From UHGV virus genome UHGV-0201879: a stretch of 64,000 nt of DNA. One strand, written 5' to 3'. Position 1 is the stretch's first letter; each line of letters opens with the position of its first letter. The notes beneath the pieces are model-generated. The model was given only the letters and a program-made list of their open reading frames with translations. It was not told the DNA's origin and did not search any database. Shown one piece after another: positions 8,752-47,041 of this stretch. The stretch is from a virus. The position numbers and the translations under genes are program-made.

Positions 8752-10983
8752 ATGATTGAAAAAATTAGAAAATCCAATGGTGAACTTGTAGACTTTGATG
8801 CCAGCAGACTGAATAAGTGGGGTTCATGGGCCGACAAACGCGGTATCATCTGGTCAGAAGTTGTCATGGAAGCGACAAAGCGTGTCTACGAAGGCTGTAC
8901 GACAAGAGAGATGCAGCAAGCCATGATTGACGTTTGTATTGACAAACAGACTAAAGAGCACTCTGATATGGCTGGCAGACTCCTTCTGGGTATCATCTAC
9001 AAAGAAGCCTTTGGAGGGTTTACCAAGGTTCCACGTTTACTGGCTGCTGTGAAGAGCTACCAAGCACGTGGTCTGTGGGAAGAGATGGATTACACCGATG
9101 CTGAACTGGAATACCTGCAAGGATTCATCGTCCACTCTAAAGATGAAAACTATGGGTATGCAGTCCTGAAACAATTCCGCGATAAATATGGAATCCGTGA
9201 TATCAAAACTGGTAAGCTGTACGAGTCACCACAGTTTATGTTTATGGGGATGGCTATGAAGGCGTTCGAGAAGCAGCCTAAACACCGCCGTCTGGAGGAT
9301 GTAATTAAACTGTACACCTACCTATCAGATTTGAAGATTAACGCTCCTACGCCTTATTTAAACGGCTTACGTGCGACTAAGAGTGGCTATGCTTCATGTT
9401 GTCTGATTAAGAGTAACGACTCTGCACAATCTATCGGTGTTGCTGCCAAGGTTGCTTATGACATGACTACTAAGCAAGCTGGTATCGGGATGCTGCTGGA
9501 GACACGAACAGTTGGTGACGGTATTCGTAATAACACGATTGAACACATGGGTAAGTTACCTTACTACAAACTGATTCGTTCCTGTGTTGAAGCCAATAAG
9601 CAGAAGAGCCGTGGAGGTTCAGCAAACAACTTCTACACAGCTATGGACCCGCAGATTCAAGACCTGCTAAGACTGAAGCACCCAACAACGGTAGCGAGTA
9701 AGCGTATCAATGAGATGGACTACTCTTTTGGTACTAACGATTACTTCTGGGAGTGTGTACAGAAGGACACAGACTGGTTCTTGTTCTCTTACAAAGATGC
9801 CCCACGACTGTATGACGCTTTCTACAAGCTGTCTGCTGCTGAATTTAGCATGCTGGTCGCTATTGAGTTGAATGCAGGTACGAAACATGTTCGTGTGAAG
9901 GCACGTGATGTGGCAAAACTGTTCATTCAGCAACGTTACGCAACTGGACGTATCTATCCGTTCTTTGCAACCAATGCGAACAGTCATACCCCATTCACAG
10001 AAACACTGAAAATGTCAAACCTGTGTATGGAGATTGTACTACCTGTTTATGGTTTTGAAGATGAGCAAGACCTCTATAGTCCGAGCGAGAAAGAGAAAGG
10101 TGAAGTAGCTCTGTGCTTCCTTGCAAGTCTGGTTGCAGGAAGAATTACGGAGGAAGAATATGGTGATGTGGCTTATTACGCTCTTGCAATGGTTGACTCC
10201 GTTATTGACCTTATGGAGTATCCATATCCGTCAATGGCTCACCATGTACGTAAGCGTCGTTCTGTTGGTATTGGTCTTACTAATGTGGCACACTACCTTG
10301 CGAAGAACTATGTTAACTACTCTTCAAGAGCAGGAAAGACTAAACTGCATGAGTTGGCAGAGATGCACTCCTACCACCTCCATGAAGCCTCACTGAGACT
10401 GGCTAAAGAACGTGGTGTACCAGAGTACATGAAATACACTAAGTATCCGAATGGTTGGGTTCCTCCACACACAGCTAACACGAAGATTAATGCGAAACAC
10501 GACGCAAGACTTCGTTACAACTGGGAAGACCTGTCAGACCGTATCAGGGAGAATGGTGGTATTCGTAACTCTGTGTTAGAGGCTTACATGCCTAACGAGA
10601 GTTCTTCATTAGCAACTAATACGACTAATGGACTGTACCCAATTCGTGACTTTATTCTGACTAAGAAGTCTGCTACGGGTAACGTACTGTTTATCGTCCC
10701 AGACTACGAAGAGCTACGATATGTCTACGAAATTGCTTGGGATATCGACACAGTTGACATGATTGATTGCTATGCAATTGTTCAAAAGTTCACTGGACAG
10801 GCTATCTCTTCAGATTTCTATGTTGACTATGCGAAGAAACGTACAGTATCATTAACGGAAGCCATGCAGTACATGATTTACGCTAACTCAGTAGGGCTGA
10901 AGACGATGTACTACTTGAACAGTCGTGTAGGTGTTGGTAAATCAGCACTTCAGGACGCATACTGTGAAGGTTGTGGTGTTTAG
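8752..10983 (+). CDS. nrdA: ribonucleoside-diphosphate reductase class Ia alpha subunit
   Basis: ATP cone, ASCC, SNLCME catalytic motif, LKTMYY, C-terminal CEGC. Confidence 0.97.
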   Translation: MIEKIRKSNGELVDFDASRLNKWGSWADKRGIIWSEVVMEATKRVYEGCTTREMQQAMIDVCIDKQTKEHSDMAGRLLLGIIYKEAFGGFTKVPRLLAAVKSYQARGLWEEMDYTDAELEYLQGFIVHSKDENYGYAVLKQFRDKYGIRDIKTGKLYESPQFMFMGMAMKAFEKQPKHRRLEDVIKLYTYLSDLKINAPTPYLNGLRATKSGYASCCLIKSNDSAQSIGVAAKVAYDMTTKQAGIGMLLETRTVGDGIRNNTIEHMGKLPYYKLIRSCVEANKQKSRGGSANNFYTAMDPQIQDLLRLKHPTTVASKRINEMDYSFGTNDYFWECVQKDTDWFLFSYKDAPRLYDAFYKLSAAEFSMLVAIELNAGTKHVRVKARDVAKLFIQQRYATGRIYPFFATNANSHTPFTETLKMSNLCMEIVLPVYGFEDEQDLYSPSEKEKGEVALCFLASLVAGRITEEEYGDVAYYALAMVDSVIDLMEYPYPSMAHHVRKRRSVGIGLTNVAHYLAKNYVNYSSRAGKTKLHELAEMHSYHLHEASLRLAKERGVPEYMKYTKYPNGWVPPHTANTKINAKHDARLRYNWEDLSDRIRENGGIRNSVLEAYMPNESSSLATNTTNGLYPIRDFILTKKSATGNVLFIVPDYEELRYVYEIAWDIDTVDMIDCYAIVQKFTGQAISSDFYVDYAKKRTVSLTEAMQYMIYANSVGLKTMYYLNSRVGVGKSALQDAYCEGCGV

Positions 10984-11338: not shown

Positions 11339-12404
11339 TACTAACCACCGAATCTTTCTGGGTAAGCCACTGGCAACTTACGATTCACTGAACGTGCACT
11401 ATCCAAAAATCTTTGACCTTTACAAGAAACAGAAAGCACAAGATTGGTCTGAAGATGAGTTCCCATTAGAGCAGTCACGACTGGACTTTGAGACTGTACC
11501 GGAATCTATGTCTGGTGTAATGCTGGAGATTCTTAAGTGGCAATGGGAAGCGGATTCACAGGTGGCTAAGTCTCTTGCAGTAGCTTTTGCACCATTCATT
11601 ACCGATGACACATACGCTACAGCGATTCTGAAGCAGTCTGAGATTGAGAAGCTACATGCTCTCACTTACTCCGAGATTGTCCGTCAGTGTATTCGTAACC
11701 CTGAGACAATCCTTGATGAGATTCAGAATAACGCTGCTGTACAGGACCGTATGCGAGTCATTAACAAGGTTCTGGAAGAATTGCTGGACGAAGGTATCAA
11801 TTACCGTCTTACCTTTGTCAGAGAACAGTTGATGGAGCGTGACCCATTACACTTCCACAAAGTTATCTTGAAAGCTCTCTTTGCAGTTGCAGCTTTAGAG
11901 GGTATCGCTTTTATGGCATCTTTTGCATGTACCTTTGCACTTGATGCGCAGGATAAGTTTCAAGGTATTGCACAGGCTGTGCAGAAGATTATGTTAGACG
12001 AGATTCTTCACACTCAGATTGATATCGAAGTCTTAAAAGAAACACTGAAAGACCCTGAGTTCCAAGCTGCCTTCCAGCAAGTCTTACCAGAAATTAAGGT
12101 AATCTTAGACGAAGGTATTGAAAGTGAAGAGAAATTCTCTTATTATATCTTCTCTGACGGTCGAGCTATCGTCGGACTAAATAGTACCTTACTGAAAAGT
12201 TGGGTCTATTACAATGCAGCACCACTGTATGACATGTTCGGAATCCAACGAGACTTCGAAGCACCGAAAGAGGCTCCACTCAAGTACATGCTGAAGAAGA
12301 TGGAGATTGACAAAGAACAGAATGCTAACCAAGAACAACAAAATGGCGCATATCTGATTAATGCAGTGGTTGATGATTTACAATCTGGTTATTTAGAGGT
12401 TTAA
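11325..12404 (+). CDS. nrdB: ribonucleoside-diphosphate reductase beta subunit
   Basis: W..DE, E.LH...YS, LEGI.F..SF, DEILH diiron motifs. Confidence 0.96.
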   Translation: MQTVNTNHRIFLGKPLATYDSLNVHYPKIFDLYKKQKAQDWSEDEFPLEQSRLDFETVPESMSGVMLEILKWQWEADSQVAKSLAVAFAPFITDDTYATAILKQSEIEKLHALTYSEIVRQCIRNPETILDEIQNNAAVQDRMRVINKVLEELLDEGINYRLTFVREQLMERDPLHFHKVILKALFAVAALEGIAFMASFACTFALDAQDKFQGIAQAVQKIMLDEILHTQIDIEVLKETLKDPEFQAAFQQVLPEIKVILDEGIESEEKFSYYIFSDGRAIVGLNSTLLKSWVYYNAAPLYDMFGIQRDFEAPKEAPLKYMLKKMEIDKEQNANQEQQNGAYLINAVVDDLQSGYLEV

Positions 12405-14223: not shown

Positions 14224-14553
14224 ATGACTGACAAACAGAAGATTTACAATACCCGTCGCTTACAGATTATGGTTCTGTGTGGGTATATGAACGATGAGAA
14301 AGACTCACTGTATTGTGGTTCTGGATTTACCAACTCTGACGGACAGTACATCCCTTTCAAGAAAGCTGTGGAGATGTACAACAACGAAAGTAAAGATATC
14401 CGTAGCCGTTACGCTTTTGATAAGCTAAAACTCTCTTACGATAAGCGTAAGAAGAAGATTATCTGCTTATCCAACGTGATTAAGACGCTTGACCTCATTG
14501 ATAGCGAAGAAGATTATAAACACTTCTTAAAAATCTTGAAACGTCATAAATAA
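14224..14553 (+). CDS. hypothetical protein
   Basis: 109 aa ORF, followed by terminator. Confidence 0.75.
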   Translation: MTDKQKIYNTRRLQIMVLCGYMNDEKDSLYCGSGFTNSDGQYIPFKKAVEMYNNESKDIRSRYAFDKLKLSYDKRKKKIICLSNVIKTLDLIDSEEDYKHFLKILKRHK

Positions 14554-14565
14554 CTTGATAGTCTT

Positions 14566-14592
14566 AGGGAACTGTAACAGGTTCCCTTTTTT
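14566..14592 (+). terminator. intrinsic terminator
   Basis: AGGGAAC..GTTCCCT + T run. Confidence 0.75.
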
Positions 14593-14607
14593 ATTGGAGA
14601 TTTTATA

Positions 14608-15141
14608 GTGAACTTCCCATATAGTGTACACAGAAATGCTGCAAAGACTGTTGTAGGTATGGATGAGGCTGCAAGATTAGACCTCGCACTTAATCATAAC
14701 TATGACCCAGAGAACTCCAACAGGATGACCATTCACACTGATGGTAAAATCCGTGAGAGAGCTATCTTCCTCTACTACCCCCACTACACTATTGATAACG
14801 TGTATGAGTATGCTGTTATCAAGTCAACTATCACATACCTTAACAAGCTATGTCGATTCCCCACCAGCAAAGGCTTTACATTAGGCCACCACATCCCTGT
14901 GAAAGCTGGAGGTACACACCACATGGAAAACTGGTTTATCCAGACTTACAAAGATAACCAGCTACAAGGTAACAATGTACCTGAAACGCCTAAGATGACA
15001 TTTGAAGAGCAGAAAGAATATCTAAAACAAAACATGCCACAACTACTTGACAGAGCCTACTCAGATATCGCAGTATTACTCCTGTTGAAGTACGAAGAAA
15101 TCTATAAGGCGACTTATCCATGTCAAAAAGAGATTGGGTAG
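14608..15141 (+). CDS. HNH endonuclease-like protein
   Basis: GHHIPVKAGGTHHMENW...DN pattern (DH.IP...GG.H...N). Confidence 0.7.
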   Translation: MNFPYSVHRNAAKTVVGMDEAARLDLALNHNYDPENSNRMTIHTDGKIRERAIFLYYPHYTIDNVYEYAVIKSTITYLNKLCRFPTSKGFTLGHHIPVKAGGTHHMENWFIQTYKDNQLQGNNVPETPKMTFEEQKEYLKQNMPQLLDRAYSDIAVLLLLKYEEIYKATYPCQKEIG

Positions 15142-15398
15142 TAAAAAGTCTGGTATCGGATGGTGGTCACGGAACTGACATGTACATGATTCGTGGACAT
15201 GTTGATAACGACCTTGCTATGATAACCCTTGATGAGGTTGTAGGGGATTTTCACAGAACCTTGGGAGAACCGAGTTTTGAAAGAACCTTTACAAAACCTG
15301 TACCAGACTCTACAGGCAATTGCTCAGTGATTTATCACATAGTAGACCCTAAGAAGTGTAAATCTGCAATGGCAGTAACCTTCGTAACATACGATTAA
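15120..15398 (+). CDS. hypothetical protein
   Basis: 92 aa ORF. Confidence 0.7.
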   Translation: MSKRDWVVKSLVSDGGHGTDMYMIRGHVDNDLAMITLDEVVGDFHRTLGEPSFERTFTKPVPDSTGNCSVIYHIVDPKKCKSAMAVTFVTYD

Positions 15399-15409
15399 GA
15401 GAGAAAAGT

Positions 15410-16303
15410 ATGAAACTGACTTCTAAAGTAACTGTAAACATCCTGACTAACAACGGTGCATCGTACATTCAGGAACTTGATGTGACACATTTCCCTACTG
15501 GTGAGATTATGGCACACCTGTCTCCAGAGTGTGTACGCTTCTGTCAGGAAAACGGTGGAAACATGAAAGCTGTTGTGTACGTTACACAGGGCTTCTGTAA
15601 AGACCTTCTGTTTAAGATTGCCTTAGCAAAAGAGGCTGTAACTACACTGATTCCTGTTGGAAACGTTACACATGCACTGATAATGGCTTACCTGCCAAAT
15701 GCTCGTTATGACCGTCACATGTTTGAGGGTGATGCAGCAGCTTTGAAGGTGTTTGCAAACATGATTAACAGCATGGGTTTTGATGCAGTCTCCTGCTTCG
15801 ATGCTCATAGTAACGTTGCAGAGAACCTCTTCCCAGCTTTCCGTGAAATGTCTCAAGCAGAAATCTTGGCAGACGGTAAAGAGGTCATTTACCAGAAACG
15901 TTATAACTTCCTTGTAGCTCCAGATGCAGGTGCTTCTAAGAAGATTCACAAAGTATCTGAAGTGCTGGGAATCCCTTACATCACTATGCACAAACATCGT
16001 GACGTTAAAACTGGTGAGATTACCGGAATCAGTGTCCTTGACAAAGAAGACTTAACAGGTAAGACAGTCCTGATTGTTGATGACATTTGTGACGGTGGAC
16101 GTACATTTGTAGAGGCTGCAAAAGTTCTCCGTGAAAATGGTGCTAATGTTGTTGACTTATGCGTTACACATGGTATCTTCAGTGCCGGAGTTGAACGACT
16201 GTTTGAGGGTGGTATTGACACAATCTACACCACAGACACTTTAGGCAGCTTCGAAGAACGTGGTTTTGCCAACAACCCTCGTATGAAAATGTTAGGTCAA
16301 TAA
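15410..16303 (+). CDS. ribose-phosphate pyrophosphokinase-like (probable ADPR-PP synthase, Adps)
   Basis: FPTGE, YLP.AR.DR, D.HS, VAPDAGA, VDDICDGGRT, THGIFS. Confidence 0.9.
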   Translation: MKLTSKVTVNILTNNGASYIQELDVTHFPTGEIMAHLSPECVRFCQENGGNMKAVVYVTQGFCKDLLFKIALAKEAVTTLIPVGNVTHALIMAYLPNARYDRHMFEGDAAALKVFANMINSMGFDAVSCFDAHSNVAENLFPAFREMSQAEILADGKEVIYQKRYNFLVAPDAGASKKIHKVSEVLGIPYITMHKHRDVKTGEITGISVLDKEDLTGKTVLIVDDICDGGRTFVEAAKVLRENGANVVDLCVTHGIFSAGVERLFEGGIDTIYTTDTLGSFEERGFANNPRMKMLGQ

Positions 16304-16314
16304 GAGAGATTATC

Positions 16315-18099
16315 ATGACAAATTCTATCTACGCAGTACCAGCAGGTCTTAATGCAGATGCTTACAAAGCAGGTCACATCTATCAGTACCCAAAAGGTAC
16401 TTCGTTCCTGATGATGAACCTGACACCACGCTCCGATAAGTGGTTTAACAGTCCACTGACCGTTGACGGTGTAGTTGCTTTCGGTATTCAACGCTTTGTT
16501 AAAGACTACCTCGTAGACCACTGGAACAAAACATTCTTCGAAGTTGAGAAGGATGAAGCTGTTAGCCAGATTGTAGATGTAATGAACGGTGTTCTCGGTG
16601 AAGGTGCTATCGGACGTAAGCATTGGGAAGATTTGCACGACCTCGGATATCTGCCAGTAGAAGTTTACGCAGTTGATGAAGGAACAATCGTGCCGATGAA
16701 AGTTCCAATGGTTGTCTTCATGAACACAGTCACTGGCTTCCATTGGGTTGCAGGATATCTGGAAGATGCTTTCTCTGCTGAAATCTGGAAAGCCTCCACT
16801 ATTGCCACTGTTGCCTTACACTACAAACGTATTTGTAAGAAATGGGCTGAACTATCTTGTGACAATCTGGGTCATCTGCCGTGGCAGTGTCATGACTTTG
16901 CAATGCGAGGAATGTCTGGTTTTACAGATGATGCCTTCAATGCTGTAGGCCACTTAACCTGCTTCCAAGGCACTGATAGCTTCCCTGCGGTGTACACTGC
17001 AAAACGTGCTTATGGCAACAACATGCCTATCTCGCAGATTGGTAACTCTGTACCAGCTACAGAACACTCTGTGATGTGTGCTAACATTGCATTCCGAGGG
17101 AAAGGTAAAGAGGACGAGTACGAACAGCGTTACTACGGTGAGAAAGAGACTTTCCGTAAGTTCCTGACTGAGACTTACCCAACTGGTATTGTCTCTGTAG
17201 TCTCTGACACGTACAACTTCTGGCGTACCATTGACGACATTCTGCCATCTCTGCGAAAAGAAATTATGGAGCGTGATGGTAAACTGGTTGTTCGTCCTGA
17301 CTCTGGCGACCCTGTTTATGTTGTCACAGGTTATAAAGCAATCCACTTAGAGTGTGCTAAGAAGGCTTACTACGAACACTTTGTCAACCTGAATATCAAC
17401 AGTCCGAAGACTAAAGCGATTCTGGACATGACACTGGAAGACATTGACTATGGAATGTCTGGTTGGTTGCTCTCTGAAGGGTACGAAATGGTTGTTGACC
17501 GTGAAGACCTTGAGTCGGCTGACACAGTTATCCTGAAAGACGTTTATCGCTCAGGTGTAGTCAACGTAGTAGTTCGTCCGAAAGCAGAGATTGATGGTGC
17601 TCTCAGAACGCTCTATAACGTCTTTGGAGGCACTATTAACTCCAAGGGTTATAAGGTACTGGATGAACACATTGGCCTCATCTACGGCGATTCTATCACG
17701 CTAGAACGTGCTGATTTAATCCTGAAGCGCATGTATGAGATGGGTTTTGCAAGTTCTAACATCGTATTTGGTGTAGGTTCGTACACTTACCAGTACATGA
17801 CACGAGACACTTTCGCATTTGCTGTGAAAGCAACTCTGGCACGTATTGAAGGCGAAGACTACATGCTGTCGAAAGACCCTGTGACGGATAATGGTGTCAA
17901 AAAGTCTGCCCGTGGTGGTGTTGCTGCTGTACGTGGCAAAGACGGGAAACTGAAACTTAAAGATGGTATGACGTTTGCAGATTTTGATGATGCTACAGCG
18001 ATAGGTTCCCTTAGCATGAATCTTGTATTCGCTGACTCTAATGCCTACGGGTACACCAGTTTGAATGACATTCGAAATACTATTGACATTCAACTTTAA
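16315..18099 (+). CDS. nadV: nicotinamide phosphoribosyltransferase-like (probable Namat)
   Basis: DAYK.GH..QYP, HDF..RG, PATEHSV, SVVSDTY, VRPDSG, IYGDSI, FGVG, KDP.TD.G.KKSA.G. Confidence 0.92.
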   Translation: MTNSIYAVPAGLNADAYKAGHIYQYPKGTSFLMMNLTPRSDKWFNSPLTVDGVVAFGIQRFVKDYLVDHWNKTFFEVEKDEAVSQIVDVMNGVLGEGAIGRKHWEDLHDLGYLPVEVYAVDEGTIVPMKVPMVVFMNTVTGFHWVAGYLEDAFSAEIWKASTIATVALHYKRICKKWAELSCDNLGHLPWQCHDFAMRGMSGFTDDAFNAVGHLTCFQGTDSFPAVYTAKRAYGNNMPISQIGNSVPATEHSVMCANIAFRGKGKEDEYEQRYYGEKETFRKFLTETYPTGIVSVVSDTYNFWRTIDDILPSLRKEIMERDGKLVVRPDSGDPVYVVTGYKAIHLECAKKAYYEHFVNLNINSPKTKAILDMTLEDIDYGMSGWLLSEGYEMVVDREDLESADTVILKDVYRSGVVNVVVRPKAEIDGALRTLYNVFGGTINSKGYKVLDEHIGLIYGDSITLERADLILKRMYEMGFASSNIVFGVGSYTYQYMTRDTFAFAVKATLARIEGEDYMLSKDPVTDNGVKKSARGGVAAVRGKDGKLKLKDGMTFADFDDATAIGSLSMNLVFADSNAYGYTSLNDIRNTIDIQL

Positions 18100-42630: not shown

Positions 42631-42707
42631 CTGTGTTTAGCTTAGTTTGGTAGAGCACTCCGTTTGGGACGGAGAGGTCGTAGGTTCAACTCCTACAACA
42701 CAGACCA
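42631..42707 (+). tRNA. tRNA-Pro(TGG)
   Basis: cloverleaf, CTCCG-TTTGGGA-CGGAG, CCA. Confidence 0.92.
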
Positions 42708-42714
42708 AATTTAT

Positions 42715-42789
42715 GTCGTAGAAGGCAAAAGGTTAGCCACCTGCCCTTCAAGCAGTTGCTCGCGGGTTCGAATCCCGTCTACGACTCCA
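42715..42789 (+). tRNA. tRNA-Glu(TTC)
   Basis: CTGC-CCTTCAA-GCAG, GTTCGAATC, CCA. Confidence 0.88.
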
Positions 42790-42794
42790 GAATT

Positions 42795-42864
42795 TGACAG
42801 AAGACCAATTGCAGCAAATTATATATCTGACCTGTAATCGGAAACAAATCATTTGGTCTGGTCA
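42795..42864 (+). ncRNA. CAGAAGACC/CAGCAA motif RNA copy 1 (Y-RNA-like candidate)
   Basis: TGAC-AGA-AGACCAA-TTG-CAGCAA...TTGGTCT-G-GTCA. Confidence 0.75.
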
Positions 42865-42872
42865 TTAAGAAT

Positions 42873-42949
42873 TGCGGGTATAGAGAAAGGGTGTCTCACA
42901 TGCCTCATTAGCATGGTATCGGTAGGTTCGACTCCTACACCCGCCTCCA
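42873..42949 (+). tRNA. tRNA-Met(CAT), initiator-like
   Basis: CATGC-CTCATTA-GCATG; unpaired 1:72; CCA. Confidence 0.85.
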
Positions 42950-42952
42950 AAT

Positions 42953-43017
42953 TTGCAGAAGACCGTATTCAGCAACAAAACTACTTTTTGCGGATAAAAG
43001 ATAACACGGTCTGGCAA
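42953..43017 (+). ncRNA. CAGAAGACC/CAGCAA motif RNA copy 2
   Basis: TTGC-AGA-AGACCGT-ATT-CAGCAA...ACGGTCT-G-GCAA. Confidence 0.75.
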
Positions 43018-43025
43018 TGTATTAA

Positions 43026-43099
43026 GGTTAGGAAGCACATAAGGTATGTGCGGTCGCCTGTTAAGCGAATGGCACAGGGTTCGAATCCCTGACTAACCG
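43026..43099 (+). tRNA. tRNA-Asn(GTT)
   Basis: TCGC-CTGTTAA-GCGA; followed by CAA, not CCA. Confidence 0.88.
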
Positions 43100-43110
43100 C
43101 AAATTTAAAT

Positions 43111-43198
43111 GTGTCGTTATCCCGTAGATGGTAGCGGTGGGGACTGTAAATCCCTTGTCATTGAGACTCGGTAGGTTCGACTCCTACACGGCACACCA
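43111..43198 (+). tRNA. tRNA-Tyr(GTA)
   Basis: GGGGA-CTGTAAA-TCCCT, long variable arm, CCA. Confidence 0.92.
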
Positions 43199-43203
43199 AT
43201 AAA

Positions 43204-43280
43204 GGCTATGTAGTTTAACTGGAGAAAATACTCCCCTGTCACGGGAGACGATATGGGTTCAAGTCCCATTGTAGCCGCCA
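43204..43280 (+). tRNA. tRNA-Asp(GTC)
   Basis: CTCCC-CTGTCAC-GGGAG, GCCA. Confidence 0.92.
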
Positions 43281-43336
43281 ATTTAGGAAGGACTTTTTAG
43301 TCCCTCCATTAAAGGGTTCTTTCGAGAGTTCTTTAA

Positions 43337-43422
43337 TGGGGCAGAAGACCAAATACAGCAAACACTCAACAATGTATGAAGAAATTTAATCTATCTCCAT
43401 GTTAAGCGTTGGTCTGGTCCTA
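43337..43422 (+). ncRNA. CAGAAGACC/CAGCAA motif RNA copy 3
   Basis: TGGGGC-AGA-AGACCAA-ATA-CAGCAA...TTGGTCT-G-GTCCTA. Confidence 0.75.
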
Positions 43423-43425
43423 GTT

Positions 43426-43567
43426 ATTATTCTTGTAAGTAAGCTGTTGCTTATATGGGGAGTATGCGGCCCCTGAGCAGAGTAGGTCTAAATACTAGTA
43501 TACGTCCTGATATAATGCACCGCTACAGTCCTTAAGCAAGACTGGACAGCTTACCTACAAGAATAAT
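43426..43567 (+). ncRNA. structured RNA closed by 21/22-bp terminal stem
   Basis: 43426-43447 pairs with 43546-43567; internal hairpins. Confidence 0.65.
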
Positions 43568-43643
43568 GGAAGTGTAGCAGAATGGTGATGCGGCAGACTT
43601 TTAATCTGACAGGCGACGGGTTCGAATCCCTCCACTTCTACCA
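43568..43643 (+). tRNA. tRNA-Lys(TTT)
   Basis: CAGA-CTTTTAA-TCTG, CCA. Confidence 0.92.
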
Positions 43644-43721
43644 AATTCACCCTTAACTGAGAAACACCTGCGCGGCTGGAAACACCCACTCAATAGTTTC
43701 TCTACCAAGGGTACTTATTCT

Positions 43722-43798
43722 GGTTCAGTCGCAGATATGGTAATGCAAGGGTTTCATAAGCCCTATGAATGTGGGTTCGAATCCCATCTGAACCTCCA
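43722..43798 (+). tRNA. tRNA-Met or Ile2 (CAT)
   Basis: AGGGT-TTCATAA-GCCCT, CCA. Confidence 0.85.
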
Positions 43799-43800
43799 AT

Positions 43801-43876
43801 GCTGTGAAAGCACATATGGATGTGCATTCGGCTGATAACCGAAAGGAAGAAGGTTCGAATCCTTCTCACAGTACCA
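43801..43876 (+). tRNA. tRNA-Ile(GAT)
   Basis: TTCGG-CTGATAA-CCGAA, CCA. Confidence 0.92.
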
Positions 43877-43891
43877 ATTTCAATAAAGTTG

Positions 43892-43920
43892 TTGACAATG
43901 AGATGTGACCACTTTATAGT
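43892..43920 (+). promoter_or_regulatory. internal sigma70 promoter
   Basis: TTGACA-17-TATAGT, predicted +1 near 43926. Confidence 0.85.
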
Positions 43921-43925
43921 AACCT

Positions 43926-44085
43926 TAGTTTTCGTTAGCGTAGCGTCTATTTTGCAAATTTAAAATAAATGCAAACGATAATGTTTTTCTGGCAGTAGCT
44001 TAATAGGCTAAACACCAGTGAGGTCTTCCAACCCCTCATCAAAGAATTTGGCGTACTAGCCCACGGTATGATTAATAAAGTGGGC
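43926..44085 (+). ncRNA. tmRNA mRNA-like-domain RNA with antisense 5' arm, no tRNA-like domain
   Basis: AAATAAAT-GCA resume context, tag ANDNVFLAVA* (43971-44003), stop-codon hairpin, two pseudoknot-like elements. Confidence 0.75.
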
Positions 44086-44153
44086 AACATTCTAAAGGGT
44101 ATCCCGAATAGGGCTTGGCTTAAATGCACTAAAGTACCCTTCAGAATGTTAAT

Positions 44154-44228
44154 GCTCCGTTAGTCTAAAGGATAGGCATCTGTCTTCTAAACAGATTGAT
44201 ATAGGTTCGAGTCCTATACGGAGTACCA
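44154..44228 (+). tRNA. tRNA-Arg(TCT)
   Basis: TCTGT-CTTCTAA-ACAGA, CCA. Confidence 0.92.
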
Positions 44229-44340
44229 TATTTAGAGTGTCTCCAAATGGAGGTGGTCTTTATCTCATGTTTCCAGAACATGTAAATAATCTGAGTAGGG
44301 ACTTTGTAGTGTTGTGAAATACGACAAGTTCTGTTGAAGT

Positions 44341-44423
44341 ATGGGACGATGTTAAGACTCTAAGGCATGAGCAACGGCTTCCAACACCGTTTCAAAGGGG
44401 TTCGATTCCTCCGTCCCATGCCA
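44341..44423 (+). tRNA. atypical tRNA-like element, probably Trp(CCA)
   Basis: ATGGGACG/CGTCCCAT-GCCA acceptor, enlarged D arm, 9-nt loop CTTCCAACA, GGTTCGATTCC. Confidence 0.6.
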
Positions 44424-44436
44424 AAGTCTTATTAGG

Positions 44437-44524
44437 GGTAAGTAGCGGCTAATGGAAGCCAAACTGTCTTGAAAACAGTTGCCATTGTAGTGATACGGTG
44501 AGGGTTCGACTCCTTTACTTACCG
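44437..44524 (+). tRNA. tRNA-Ser(TGA)
   Basis: ACTGT-CTTGAAA-ACAGT, long arm; followed by CCT. Confidence 0.88.
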
Positions 44525-44778
44525 CCTAATAAGATTTACACCGTCATGCTTGCTCGCATTTTCGGTTTATCCCTCGTGTATTGTCGTACACAAGATGAAA
44601 CGCCTAGTAGGTGTCACGGAGAAGAGATGATATCAAGCTCTCCAAAGGTACTAGCCACCGGATTAAAGAAGGCTATGATTAAGACCTATTTAGGTCTTTG
44701 TAGATGGCTACGTAAATGGTTTAGTCTATTTCGGTCATTGTTGCTCACATACTGTGTAGCCATCTACAAAGGCTTAAT

Positions 44779-44855
44779 GCACCTATAGCCCAATTGGTAG
44801 AGGCACTAGACTTAGAATCTATGCAGTGTGAGTTCGAATCTCTCTAGGTGTACCA
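44779..44855 (+). tRNA. tRNA-Leu(TAG), short variable region
   Basis: TAGA-CTTAGAA-TCTA, CCA. Confidence 0.88.
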
Positions 44856-44862
44856 AATTAAT

Positions 44863-44938
44863 GCAGGTGTAGCAAAATGGTTATGCGGCTGACTCTTAAT
44901 CAGTAAGACGATGGGTTCAATTCCCTCCACCTGTACCA
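44863..44938 (+). tRNA. tRNA-Lys(CTT)
   Basis: GCTGA-CTCTTAA-TCAGT, CCA. Confidence 0.92.
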
Positions 44939-44943
44939 AATTC

Positions 44944-45019
44944 GGGGATGTAGTTTAAATGGTTAAAACATAAGTTTTGCAAACTTAAGTACAGGGTTCA
45001 ATTCCCTGCTTCTCCACCA
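44944..45019 (+). tRNA. tRNA-Ala(TGC)
   Basis: TAAGT-TTTGCAA-ACTTA, G3:U70, CCA. Confidence 0.92.
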
Positions 45020-45025
45020 ATCAGT

Positions 45026-45100
45026 GCATCCATAGTTTAAACGGGAAAATTACAGTCTTCCAAACTGAGGTTGAGGGTTCGATTCCCTCTGGATGCTCCA
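45026..45100 (+). tRNA. tRNA-Gly(TCC)
   Basis: CAGT-CTTCCAA-ACTG, TCCA. Confidence 0.92.
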
Positions 45101-45106
45101 AACAAT

Positions 45107-45183
45107 GCTGCTTTCGTATAATTGGCTATTACACATCCCTTGTAAGGATGGAAATGCGGGTTCGAGTCCTGTGAGCAGCACCA
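45107..45183 (+). tRNA. tRNA-Thr(TGT)
   Basis: CATCC-CTTGTAA-GGATG, CCA. Confidence 0.92.
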
Positions 45184-45275
45184 ATTTAGGTCAAGTGAAA
45201 AACCGCTTTGAGTCAACTGAAGACCGTAACAAATTCCACGGGGTTGTGGTAGCGGAACAACTCCAGACCTTTTAC

Positions 45276-45350
45276 GCTCGGTTAGTTTATATGGTAAAAC
45301 ACCATCCTTACAAGTTGGTGAAGTGGGTTCAAGTCCCTCACTGAGTACCA
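45276..45350 (+). tRNA. tRNA-Val(TAC)
   Basis: loop CTTACAA, CCA. Confidence 0.88.
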
Positions 45351-45351
45351 A

Positions 45352-45429
45352 GTTCCAGTATCCCAATTGGCAGAGGATGCAAGCTCAAACCTTGTATTAG
45401 TGACGGTTCGAATCCGTCTTGGAACACCA
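45352..45429 (+). tRNA. tRNA-Leu(CAA), short variable region
   Basis: GCAAG-CTCAAAC-CTTGT, CCA. Confidence 0.88.
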
Positions 45430-45434
45430 GTTTT

Positions 45435-45510
45435 GCAGGATTAGTTCAAATGGATAGAGCAACAGTCTACGAAGCTGTTAATAGGGGTTCGAGTCCCTTA
45501 TCCTGCGCCA
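45435..45510 (+). tRNA. tRNA-Arg(ACG)
   Basis: ACAGT-CTACGAA-GCTGT, GCCA. Confidence 0.92.
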
Positions 45511-45526
45511 ATTACTAGGTGGTTAC

Positions 45527-45760
45527 GTGCGTAAATTAATCATTGAGAGTCATGCAGATGCTGATAAGATTGAAACAGCAAAAGTTGGTGACACATCTTT
45601 CATCGTTGTTGGTTGGAAATGCGACCCATACGAAGTTATGAAGGTTGTTCACGGATTTGCTGGTTGTCATTTCAATCAGATTATCTTTGAAACACTATTA
45701 CCAGAAAACAAAGACACCTGTAATAACGCATATCTGCTTACAAGAGTTAGGAATCACTAG
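45527..45760 (+). CDS. hypothetical protein inside tRNA array
   Basis: 77 aa, AGGTGG RBS, GTG start. Confidence 0.65.
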   Translation: MRKLIIESHADADKIETAKVGDTSFIVVGWKCDPYEVMKVVHGFAGCHFNQIIFETLLPENKDTCNNAYLLTRVRNH

Positions 45761-45834
45761 GGGATTAGTTTAAACGGTTAAAACACCGGACTTTGACTCC
45801 GGTAATGAGGGTTCAATTCCTTCATCCCCCACCA
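45759..45834 (+). tRNA. tRNA-Gln(TTG)
   Basis: CCGGA-CTTTGAC-TCCGG, CCA. Confidence 0.9.
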
Positions 45835-45840
45835 AACAAA

Positions 45841-45919
45841 GCTCCATTACTCCAATTGGCAGAGAGGCCAGACTTAAAATCTGTGTTATGTATCGGTTCG
45901 AATCCGATATGGAGTACCA
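45841..45919 (+). tRNA. tRNA-Leu(TAA), short variable region
   Basis: CAGA-CTTAAAA-TCTG, CCA. Confidence 0.88.
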
Positions 45920-45956
45920 AAGTCATTTCTAAGGGTTCTTATGAGAGTCCTTAAAT

Positions 45957-46032
45957 GTGACTTTATCATAAATGGCAATGACCCACACTGTGAATGTGGT
46001 CTATACGGGTTCGAATCCCGTAAGTCACCCCA
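45957..46032 (+). tRNA. tRNA-His(GTG)
   Basis: CCACA-CTGTGAA-TGTGG, C73, CCA. Confidence 0.9.
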
Positions 46033-46038
46033 AATTAT

Positions 46039-46114
46039 AGCCCAAGTAGCTTATAAGGTTAAAGCGCGTGTCTGAAAAACATGAGAATAGGGTTCAATAC
46101 CCGCTGGGCTACCA
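46039..46114 (+). tRNA. tRNA-Phe(GAA)
   Basis: CGTGT-CTGAAAA-ACATG, CCA. Confidence 0.85.
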
Positions 46115-46133
46115 AATCTAATAAGGTGGTAAT

Positions 46134-46868
46134 ATGAAACCGATGACAGACCAAGGTAAGAATGTTTTCAACCTTCTTAAATCTGGTAACGGATTCTCTA
46201 ACCCACTCATTACAGGTGCTGCCGTTCTAGGTGGTACAGTTGCTGTCTCTTCAGGATTAGCAAAAACCTTATCCTCTGTATCCGACCCTACAACAAAAGA
46301 TAAACTTATCGCTGCTGGATTGACAGAGGTTGTCTTGACAGGCTTTACACAGACTCTGGGTAAAAGCACAGAAACTACAAAGACCCTGACTGACTATGGT
46401 CAGAAGTCTATTGATGAGTTCTCTTCAAGAATGCAAGTCGCTAAGAGCTATCAGAACGTAATGGGTGCTGCTGGAGAACAAACCGGATGTACACCTTTCA
46501 GTGGTGTTATGGGGGTTGTTAGTGAAGCTGGACACAAAGTTATGGACACTCTGAATAGTGCCCTAGACAGTGCTAACCAGACCCTGCAAGAGCTACAAGA
46601 TGCTATTGACAAAGGGGTTGGAGAGATTGAAGAGTTAGCTTCAAAAGCTGCTGCTGAGATTGAAGAAGCCACTGCTAAGGTTGAAGAGTATGTGTCCGGT
46701 GTCGAGACAATGATTGAAGATGAGTTAGCAGAGATTGCTGACTACTTGAAAACGAATATCCACGGGTTCTTAGCAGGTATCTTACCAGACTGGTTTGATG
46801 ATGCTTGTAAGAGTGGAATCATTGACTCCATTGCAACACCTGAAATGAAAGAAACATTAAAATCCTAG
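46134..46868 (+). CDS. helical/coiled-coil hypothetical protein inside tRNA array
   Basis: 244 aa, AAGGTGG RBS, hydrophobic N-terminal segment. Confidence 0.8.
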   Translation: MKPMTDQGKNVFNLLKSGNGFSNPLITGAAVLGGTVAVSSGLAKTLSSVSDPTTKDKLIAAGLTEVVLTGFTQTLGKSTETTKTLTDYGQKSIDEFSSRMQVAKSYQNVMGAAGEQTGCTPFSGVMGVVSEAGHKVMDTLNSALDSANQTLQELQDAIDKGVGEIEELASKAAAEIEEATAKVEEYVSGVETMIEDELAEIADYLKTNIHGFLAGILPDWFDDACKSGIIDSIATPEMKETLKS

Positions 46869-46960
46869 GAAGATTAACCCTAAAAGGTAAGGGAGCAGTT
46901 TGCTAAACTGCCAGTAGCTGAGAAATCGGTGTACCAGTTCAAGTCTGGTATCTTCCTCCA
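46868..46960 (+). tRNA. tRNA-Ser(GCT)
   Basis: GCAGT-TTGCTAA-ACTGC, long arm, CCA. Confidence 0.9.
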
Positions 46961-46965
46961 AACAT

Positions 46966-47041
46966 GCGTTGGTGACAGAAATGACTATGTGCTTGTCTGC
47001 AAAACAAGATTATGTGGGTTAAAGCCCCATCCAACGCTCCA
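46966..47041 (+). tRNA. tRNA-Cys(GCA)
   Basis: CTTGT-CTGCAAA-ACAAG, U73, CCA; atypical T loop TTAAAGC. Confidence 0.8.

Follow-up and report, generated by a model that had tools for sequence, protein, structure and literature searches.

The DNA analysed (hereafter the window) is a stretch of 64,000 nt, UHGV virus genome UHGV-0201879. It belongs to a Felix O1-type phage, with Salmonella phage Sl26 and Felix O1 as the top BLAST matches among the matches listed. ARAGORN called 24 tRNAs at positions 42631 to 47041. Within this cluster, an element of about 160 nt is flanked by tRNA-Ile (43801 to 43876) and tRNA-Arg (44154 to 44228). It is made up of a 5' arm, a tmRNA-type resume site, a 10-codon tag frame that has no start codon, a hairpin at the stop codon, and two pseudoknots (Table 1). 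The Felix O1 record carries no annotation across the element, and the Sl26 record carries only a hypothetical ORF on the opposite strand. The long hairpin 5' of tRNA-Arg was placed outside the conserved element because BLAST matches in other phage families stop near position 44086.

Table 1. Features of the element and its surroundings (window positions)
Feature	Position	Strand	Remarks
Sigma-70-type promoter, TTGACA-17-TATAGT	43892..43920	+	Consensus match only; predicted start about 43926
Promoter boxes	TTGACA 43892-43897, 17 nt, TATAGT 43915-43920	+	
Arm segment 1, predicted toehold	43926..43935	+	Fully complementary to tag codons 3-6 of E. coli tmRNA (nt 97-106)
Arm segment 2	43943..43953	+	Complementary at 10/11 positions to the host resume site (nt 81-91)
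Linker and tmRNA-type resume context (U at -5, A at -4)	43956..43970	+	
Start-less tag frame ANDNVFLAVA*	43971..44003 (GCA..TAA)	+	Second stop TAG 44004-44006
Helix-5-like hairpin across stop codon	43989..44018	+	Core 43996-44010, extension 43989-43992/44015-44018
Pseudoknot A	44018..44051	+	44018-44023/44034-44039; loop 44028-44031 with 44048-44051; covariation
Pseudoknot B	44052..44085	+	44052-44056/44066-44070; 44059-44064/44080-44085; covariation
Long hairpin 5' of tRNA-Arg	44087..44149	+	Outside conserved element

Other features of the tRNA cluster were observed. Three copies of a non-tRNA cassette (42799 to 42867, 42956 to 43016, and 43342 to 43419) have AGACC/GGTCT closing arms and a common CAGCAA near the 5' side, and two of them gave weak, unrelated Rfam matches. 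A tRNA missed by ARAGORN lies at 42715 to 42786 (Rfam, 51 bits; the anticodon appears to be TTC), a weak tRNA-like stretch at 44343 to 44417, and a long inverted repeat at 44681 to 44785, in the interval from tRNA-Ser to tRNA-Leu.

The sequence-only reading had assigned the RNA a promoter of its own directly before the arm. This promoter was found in the window, where it was the best scoring (11/12) of 10 promoter-like sites between 42400 and 47300, a number of sites at the level of shuffled sequence (mean, 9.6). It did not hold as a family feature: among 15 named copies, the pattern was located 6 to 10 nt upstream of the arm in three and 81 to 94 nt upstream in three, and was absent from nine. 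In the Felix O1 locus (L001, about 647 to 735) and in many relatives, an insertion of about 88 nt parts the promoter from the arm, so that transcripts do not in every case begin with the arm. A search of RNA-type runs returned 19 matching runs, none with half of the sampled words, and the four examined were all contigs. The contigs over the element started at 43892 or 43912, inside the promoter, and therefore neither a discrete RNA nor its ends were visible. In P1 (NC_005856), the copy, at about 68885 to 69065 and with the tag ANDDLMMVAA, sits about 190 nt past the C1-repressed P1ban promoter, which suggests that the element may be expressed lytically there. The annotation of a "dicF-like region" in P1 overlaps only the start of the arm; no paper on this annotation was found.

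Distribution and conservation of the element

A BLAST search with positions 43880 to 44150 matched 732 phage records at E values up to 1, 65 of them over at least 80% of the query. At least eight phage groups unrelated to one another carry copies of the element, namely, Ounavirinae, Chaseviridae, Jedunavirus, Schitoviridae, Akiravirus, Ackermannviridae, Punavirus (P1), and SSU5/pMT-type phage-plasmids, a list that rests on 14 named phage records and one plasmid. Both arm and tag were present in 14 of the 14 copies inspected among these records. The window element also matched 754 plasmid records at E values up to 1, and a P1-type copy used as the query matched 661 of 5,426 complete E. coli genomes, 547 of them with a cover of at least 80%. 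Most copies lie among phage tRNAs. Across the phages, the neighbors vary between tRNAs, hairpin cassettes, and structural genes, indicating that the element is a stand-alone RNA module. To judge from the comparison of copies, the element is real, widespread, and under selection. On a pMT plasmid, caf1R is about 300 nt away from a copy (L240, 702 to 870) that has the tag ANEDTYLAVA and hardly differs from the copy in phage SSU5.

The tag ANDNVFLAVA*, which had been proposed from the letters alone, was present. The accompanying claim that it lacks a start codon stood for the tag frame itself, which has no in-frame start, but an ATG at 43969 lies in another frame. This ATG was considered as the start of a peptide, MQTIMFFWQ*, and rejected, as the peptide is not conserved. 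One-base codon differences in the ATG frame were 114 synonymous versus 2,358 nonsynonymous (pairwise, not independent), while in the tag frame they were 1,656 synonymous versus 1,328 nonsynonymous (pairwise, with related sequences counted repeatedly). Only 10 of 93 copies have, within the arm, an in-frame start codon without a stop before the tag, and ordinary initiation thus does not explain the frame.

Conservation of the frame in relatives, which the sequence-only reading had set as a check, was confirmed across unrelated phages. Anchoring a scan on the first 8 bases of the tag together with the arm, but requiring no stop, yielded 109 loci, with 71 unique copies among them. In 68 of the 71, the frame runs for exactly 10 codons to a stop, and in 67 it ends in Ala; the three exceptions (L073, L081, and L087) look like chance matches. 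When all scans were pooled, 2 of 95 rows were dropped as chance matches, and the 93 copies kept held 46 tag sequences encoding 33 peptides, with the consensus A-N-D/E-x-x-F/M/V/I/Y-L/R/M-A/M/V-A/V-A. Avoidance of Tyr in the tag was considered and abandoned, as 7 of the 46 tag sequences carry a Tyr codon. One copy (L072) has a tag ending in Pro and is probably a decayed allele. In the resume context of the window and 14 copies found by BLAST, A at -4 was present in 15/15 and U at -5 in 14/15; U85 and A86 of tmRNA are reported as resume determinants (PMC8363625).

The hairpin across the stop codon, the TGAGG/CCTCA hairpin whose loop pairs downstream (pseudoknot A), and the H-type pseudoknot (pseudoknot B) were all present as described from the letters. 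The predicted fold encloses the stop codon in 93/93 copies. For 15 pairs in three helices, 93.8% of the positions in 37 aligned copies were paired (8 type-B rows, one column off in helix 2, were scored as unpaired), with changes on both sides in 12 pairs; none of 500 shuffles matched this level, and slid controls reached 37 to 48%. A generic pseudoknot finder was discarded because it also fired on 333 of 425 shuffles, and column and anchored counts were used instead. By the anchored counts, the loop-partner 4-mer of pseudoknot A was present in 83 of 86 unique modules, in nine sequence versions, and pseudoknot B in 83 of 86. The second stem of pseudoknot B had at least 5 bp in 51 of 55, versus 23% in shuffles. 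As far as these sequence comparisons reach, both pseudoknots and the tag frame are under selection.

Complementarity of the arm to host tmRNA

The host complementarity stated in the sequence-only reading was correct against E. coli ssrA (reference, L119, 794 to 1156), with 10/10 bases of segment 1 and 10/11 of segment 2 matching. The arm, whose conservation in relatives had also been proposed as a check, is kept across unrelated phages. A scan independent of the arm returned 111 loci, of which 23 were tmRNA genes (17 called by ARAGORN and 6 by 5' motifs) and 88 were not. Among these 88, 83 have the common arm and 4 have variant arms, so that an arm is present in 87. The armless locus (L142) is a P1-like copy that also lacks part of pseudoknot A and is probably a decayed allele.

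All 62 unique arms paired better with E. coli tmRNA nt 78 to 109 than with their own message (median, 11 kcal/mol), and 61 of them beat 200 shuffles (P up to 0.05), although segment 1 was partly selected by the search patterns. Host nt 87 to 89, at which the host and phage sequences differ, face segment 2, which was not selected, and their pairing is therefore free of this effect. Here, 20 variants formed Watson-Crick pairs at 36 of 60 positions with the host versus 9 of 60 with themselves. The arm of the window taken alone is unexceptional: of 4,994 windows cut from the two strands of a 50-kb E. coli sequence, 46 paired with it as well as ssrA did. In the same test, there were 106 such rivals for L002 and 21 for L241, whereas the P1 and TR2 arms ranked ssrA first. 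Conserved complementarity to a non-self target, a feature of trans-acting antisense RNAs, was thus found and is modest for the window arm alone. The longest unbroken helix with the host measured 7 to 13 bp (59 arms), and the duplex was always interrupted. RNase III cleavage needs a duplex of some minimum length, and a lasting complex fits these short helices better than destruction by RNase III.

The expectation that the arm would match the ssrA of each host was probably borne out in one lineage of jumbo phages of 254 to 262 kb (L170, L202, and L230), in which segment 1 is changed and matches ANDEQY-type tmRNAs, but not for Salmonella, Proteus, or Yersinia. The L170 arm gave -27.5 kcal/mol with ANDEQY-type versus -17.4 with E. 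coli tmRNA, and the window arm gave -18.0 versus -25.0 kcal/mol, respectively. All 21 other elements preferred the E. coli-type target over three ANDEQY-type tmRNAs; L170 showed the reverse. A jumbo phage of the L170 lineage encodes a homologue of DspB (E value, 2e-49), a Pasteurellaceae enzyme. The tmRNA of H. influenzae has an ANDEQY tag, as listed in a table of PMC12493166. From these two observations, a Pasteurellaceae-type host, a bacterium with ANDEQY-type tmRNA, can reasonably be inferred for the L170 phage, and no more than that; host covariation of the arm consequently rests on one lineage. In the jumbo phage record with the switched arm (L377), this dispersin B homologue is encoded at 14302 to 16503, together with an RlpA-family protein (9168 to 9569) and a tRNA with anticodon ATA (12015 to 12089); the homologues of its RlpA pointed to no host.

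The Salmonella tag, ANDETYALAA, differs from that of E. coli, and the predicted pairing of the window arm with it (-20.5 kcal/mol) includes one mismatch. A total of 265 matching phage records bear a Salmonella name; Salmonella phages keep the E. coli-type arm, and an arm perfect for Salmonella had no matches in viral contigs. Arms matched to Proteus or Yersinia were not found in the scans, and a metagenome scan revealed no new host type of arm. When the probe was widened to 70 nt, the window gave equally good scores for Proteus and E. coli (-26.5 versus -26.2, respectively).

The sequence-only reading had proposed that the arm can fold back on the resume codon of its own RNA and that the whole acts as a toehold switch. 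In the predicted fold of the free window RNA, segment 2 indeed pairs with 43962 to 43972, the first 7 bases are open, and the resume site is hidden. When folded without pseudoknots, the dimer with host nt 79 to 140 was favored by 8.7 kcal/mol, a value that none of 200 arm shuffles equaled, and more of the resume region opened on host binding in 6 of the 9 elements tried. The part of the prediction that can be tested on sequence, an open 5' toehold, a hidden resume site, and favorable host binding, was thus found by folding, and the interpretation of the sequence-only reading is supported at this level.

A long-arm form (71 copies, 26 variants) occurs in P1 and in N4-like, Vi01-like, and Jedunavirus phages. 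Its arm continues into what we take to be the 3' strand of stem 2 of host pseudoknot 1 (pk1), turns, and offers a segment toward host nt 57 to 60. In 25 of 26 variants, the four core pairs to these nucleotides persist despite sequence changes, which are wobble compatible. The GCGG segment was demanded by the search pattern, so that its pairing is no evidence. The spacing from the segment to the resume codon is 10 to 11 nt in 26/26 variants, as compared with 11 nt after the stem in the host; this count includes L008, L070, and L101, whose automatically picked registers are doubtful.

Relation to tmRNA and other phage RNAs

In agreement with the claim that no tRNA-like ends lie nearby, no tmRNA gene was detected in the window by ARAGORN, by the Rfam gathering score, or by 5'-end pattern. 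Below the gathering score, weak matches to permuted tmRNA (24.4 bits; cutoff, 47) and alpha-tmRNA were obtained, and the former alignment (RF04321) borrows the T arm of tRNA-Ile. A matching tRNA-like half elsewhere in the phage would have made the element an ordinary two-piece tmRNA; none of five whole phage records scored above the RF00023 or RF04321 cutoff. No acceptor piece was found in the window or in these five records; about 22 kb of the phage genome lies outside the window. An SmpB gene was found in none of four phage records searched.

The element resembles tmRNA of RF00023 in its start-less frame, the A-N-D start and Ala-stop end of the tag, the U/A resume context, the stop hairpin, and the downstream pseudoknots. 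It differs in that the tRNA-like domain (paired ends and CCA), helix 2, and a pk1 of its own are missing, the antisense arm being in place of pk1, and its score against RF00023 is about 12 bits (cutoff, 47). The closest resume context and tags (ANDEQFLMVA and ANDNAFLMAA) are those of the coding piece of two-piece (permuted) tmRNA, RF04321, phage copies included, against which the elements scored 24 to 31 bits (cutoff, 47). Two-piece tmRNA is also a precedent for a message that is held to the tRNA-like part by base pairing only. In contrast to it, the element has no 5' acceptor strand, D-loop, or acceptor piece, and its predicted partner is an intact one-piece tmRNA of the host, bound at the resume site. 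A 3'-module profile scored a mean of 1.5 bits on 50 permuted 3' ends versus 0.01 for shuffled sequence. Given so faint a signal, descent from the coding piece of a two-piece tmRNA is likely at most, and the permuted tmRNA genes of viruses are a likely source. Such genes were common in viral contigs, accounting for 69 of 100 ARAGORN tmRNA calls in one scan set (e.g., L135, L179, and L220). An 883-kb replicon of Vibrio parahaemolyticus, recorded as a plasmid, carries a divergent tmRNA with the tag ANDEHFTAIAA (L237, 357 to 733).

The anti-sRNAs AgvB and AsxR of EHEC prophages likewise base pair with host noncoding RNA, but they act as sponges. We know of no phage anti-sRNA that brings a reading frame replacing part of its target. 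The tmRNA database papers, in the parts consulted, name whole phage tmRNAs and a form of mycobacteriophage DS6A that consists of the tRNA-like domain (TLD) only and is reported to inhibit tmRNA (PMC4131195, PMC11915505). The DS6A RNA is similarly a phage-encoded half of tmRNA thought to disturb host trans-translation, but it is the opposite half, tRNA-like and with no message, and is thought to titrate SmpB without base pairing. By its sequence features, the element is outside the tmRNA families, yet it uses tmRNA parts. No description of it was found in Rfam or in the full-text literature searched, a search that mostly excludes subscription journals. Large catalogues of candidate phage RNAs may list the motif, without a message-swap reading.

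Proposed message swap and alternative explanations

The reading that we favor, and hold to be moderately probable, is that the element is a trans-acting message that re-tags rescued proteins by masking the host resume site and offering its own tag. The element would dock on host tmRNA-SmpB through the arm. Host nt 97 to 106 would bind the open 5' toehold of the phage RNA, and strand displacement over host nt 81 to 91 would then free the phage resume codon beside the 3' end of host pk1. In the long form, the 3' strand of pk1 stem 2 would also be exchanged for a phage strand, and the phage GCA would come to lie 10 to 11 nt past the stem, a spacing like that of the host (11 nt). The tRNA-like domain of the host and SmpB would still rescue the ribosome, and the protein would receive (A)ANDNVFLAVA instead of (A)ANDENYALAA. 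The benefit may be that another protease or sensor sees the rescued proteins, or that rescue continues when the host message is cut or blocked. With a shade more reserve, the proposal can be put in full: many enterobacterial phages and phage-plasmids, P1 included, may encode a toehold-invading tmRNA message that rewrites the tag on every rescued protein, and the long form may rebuild pk1 as a two-RNA hybrid.

Helix 5, the next pseudoknot, and the four bases before the resume codon are described as contacting the 30S entrance and SmpB (PMC8363625, PMC8012679), and the element keeps all of these parts. As the phage records provided neither a tRNA-like half nor SmpB, the frame would be readable only with host parts. 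Together with the register of the long form and the retained contact parts, this argues for tag swapping over inhibition, protection of the host tmRNA, or a role in cis only. No direct precedent was found for a duplex-tethered message that is loaded into the mRNA channel.

What the swap would change is hinted at by the end of the tag. In the DEtox preprint, strong degron tags are reported to be dominated by terminal Ala-Ala, an LVA end works, and Leu at -3 is part of the screen consensus (10.1101/2024.01.29.576913). By analogy, the phage tags probably remain degrons. Leu at -3 is present in the host tag and, among the tags of phage two-piece tmRNAs, in 15 of 23, but in 0 of 33 element peptides (kin not independent), and element tags never end in L-A-A. 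Its lack in all 33 peptides hints that the swap may alter which factor recognizes rescued proteins.

Plain inhibition is the main rival of re-tagging. The arm might mask the host resume site and switch tagging off, leaving rescue to ArfA/ArfB. The message half would then be a structural decoy, rarely translated, that keeps the complex bound to the ribosome. The arm does cover exactly the frame-setting nucleotides, synthetic antisense oligonucleotides are reported simply to block tmRNA in vitro (PMC7038980), and the TLD-only RNA of the DS6A type is a reported tmRNA inhibitor from a phage (PMC4131195, PMC11915505). An inhibitor, however, needs neither a fixed 10-codon frame with synonymous-biased change, terminal Ala, and stop nor the 10- to 11-nt register of the long form, and we consider this explanation unlikely, if deserving of attention.

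It is less likely still that the RNA mainly protects or bypasses host tmRNA cut by defense RNases and serves as a spare message only then. The arm would make the single-stranded host nt 81 to 106 double stranded on both sides of the resume codon, the location of most copies among phage tRNAs would suit such a role, and tmRNA is described as a frequent target of RNA repair and a predicted target of CoCoNuT (PMC11090510). No defense system that cuts the region of host nt 81 to 106 was identified, though, and a spare should keep the host-type L-A-A end, which is at odds with the absence of Leu at -3.

An RNA acting only in cis, a relic of a two-piece coding piece, would have an arm that folds solely on its own message, with the host match as a by-product and segment 1 as a leftover D-loop motif. 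The predicted fold-back in the window, the fit of the resume context to the permuted-tmRNA consensus, and the resemblance of segment 1 to the D-loop motif of phage two-piece tmRNAs are in line with this. Host pairing nevertheless exceeded self pairing in 62/62 arms and at the discriminating bases, the arm is switched in L170, and both pseudoknots and the frame are under selection, which makes such a relic very improbable. An ordinary two-piece tmRNA with a distant acceptor piece, or a small ORF from the ATG that overlaps the resume codon, is largely refuted: the weak RF04321 matches would suit the former, but the window alignment borrows a tRNA-Ile arm and lacks the 5' acceptor strand, none of the five whole phage records passed the cutoffs, and the ATG-frame peptides of 5 to 13 amino acids change almost only nonsynonymously.

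If the message-swap reading is true, the element would be a new kind of RNA regulator, one that, on the ribosome, takes the place of another RNA's coding part, and a one-piece tmRNA that is itself intact could receive its message in trans. It might also serve as a tool to reprogram tagging without editing ssrA. Even as an inhibitor, the element would be a natural antisense RNA against tmRNA, of which no description was found in the literature searched. About a tenth of complete E. coli genomes carry it (547/5,426; P1-type query, at least 80% cover), and since it lies unannotated in P1 and Felix O1, laboratory strains of E. coli allow an immediate test of its function. A message swap would mean that ribosome rescue and protein degradation are the object of an unrecognized phage-host conflict that is widespread among enterobacterial phages.
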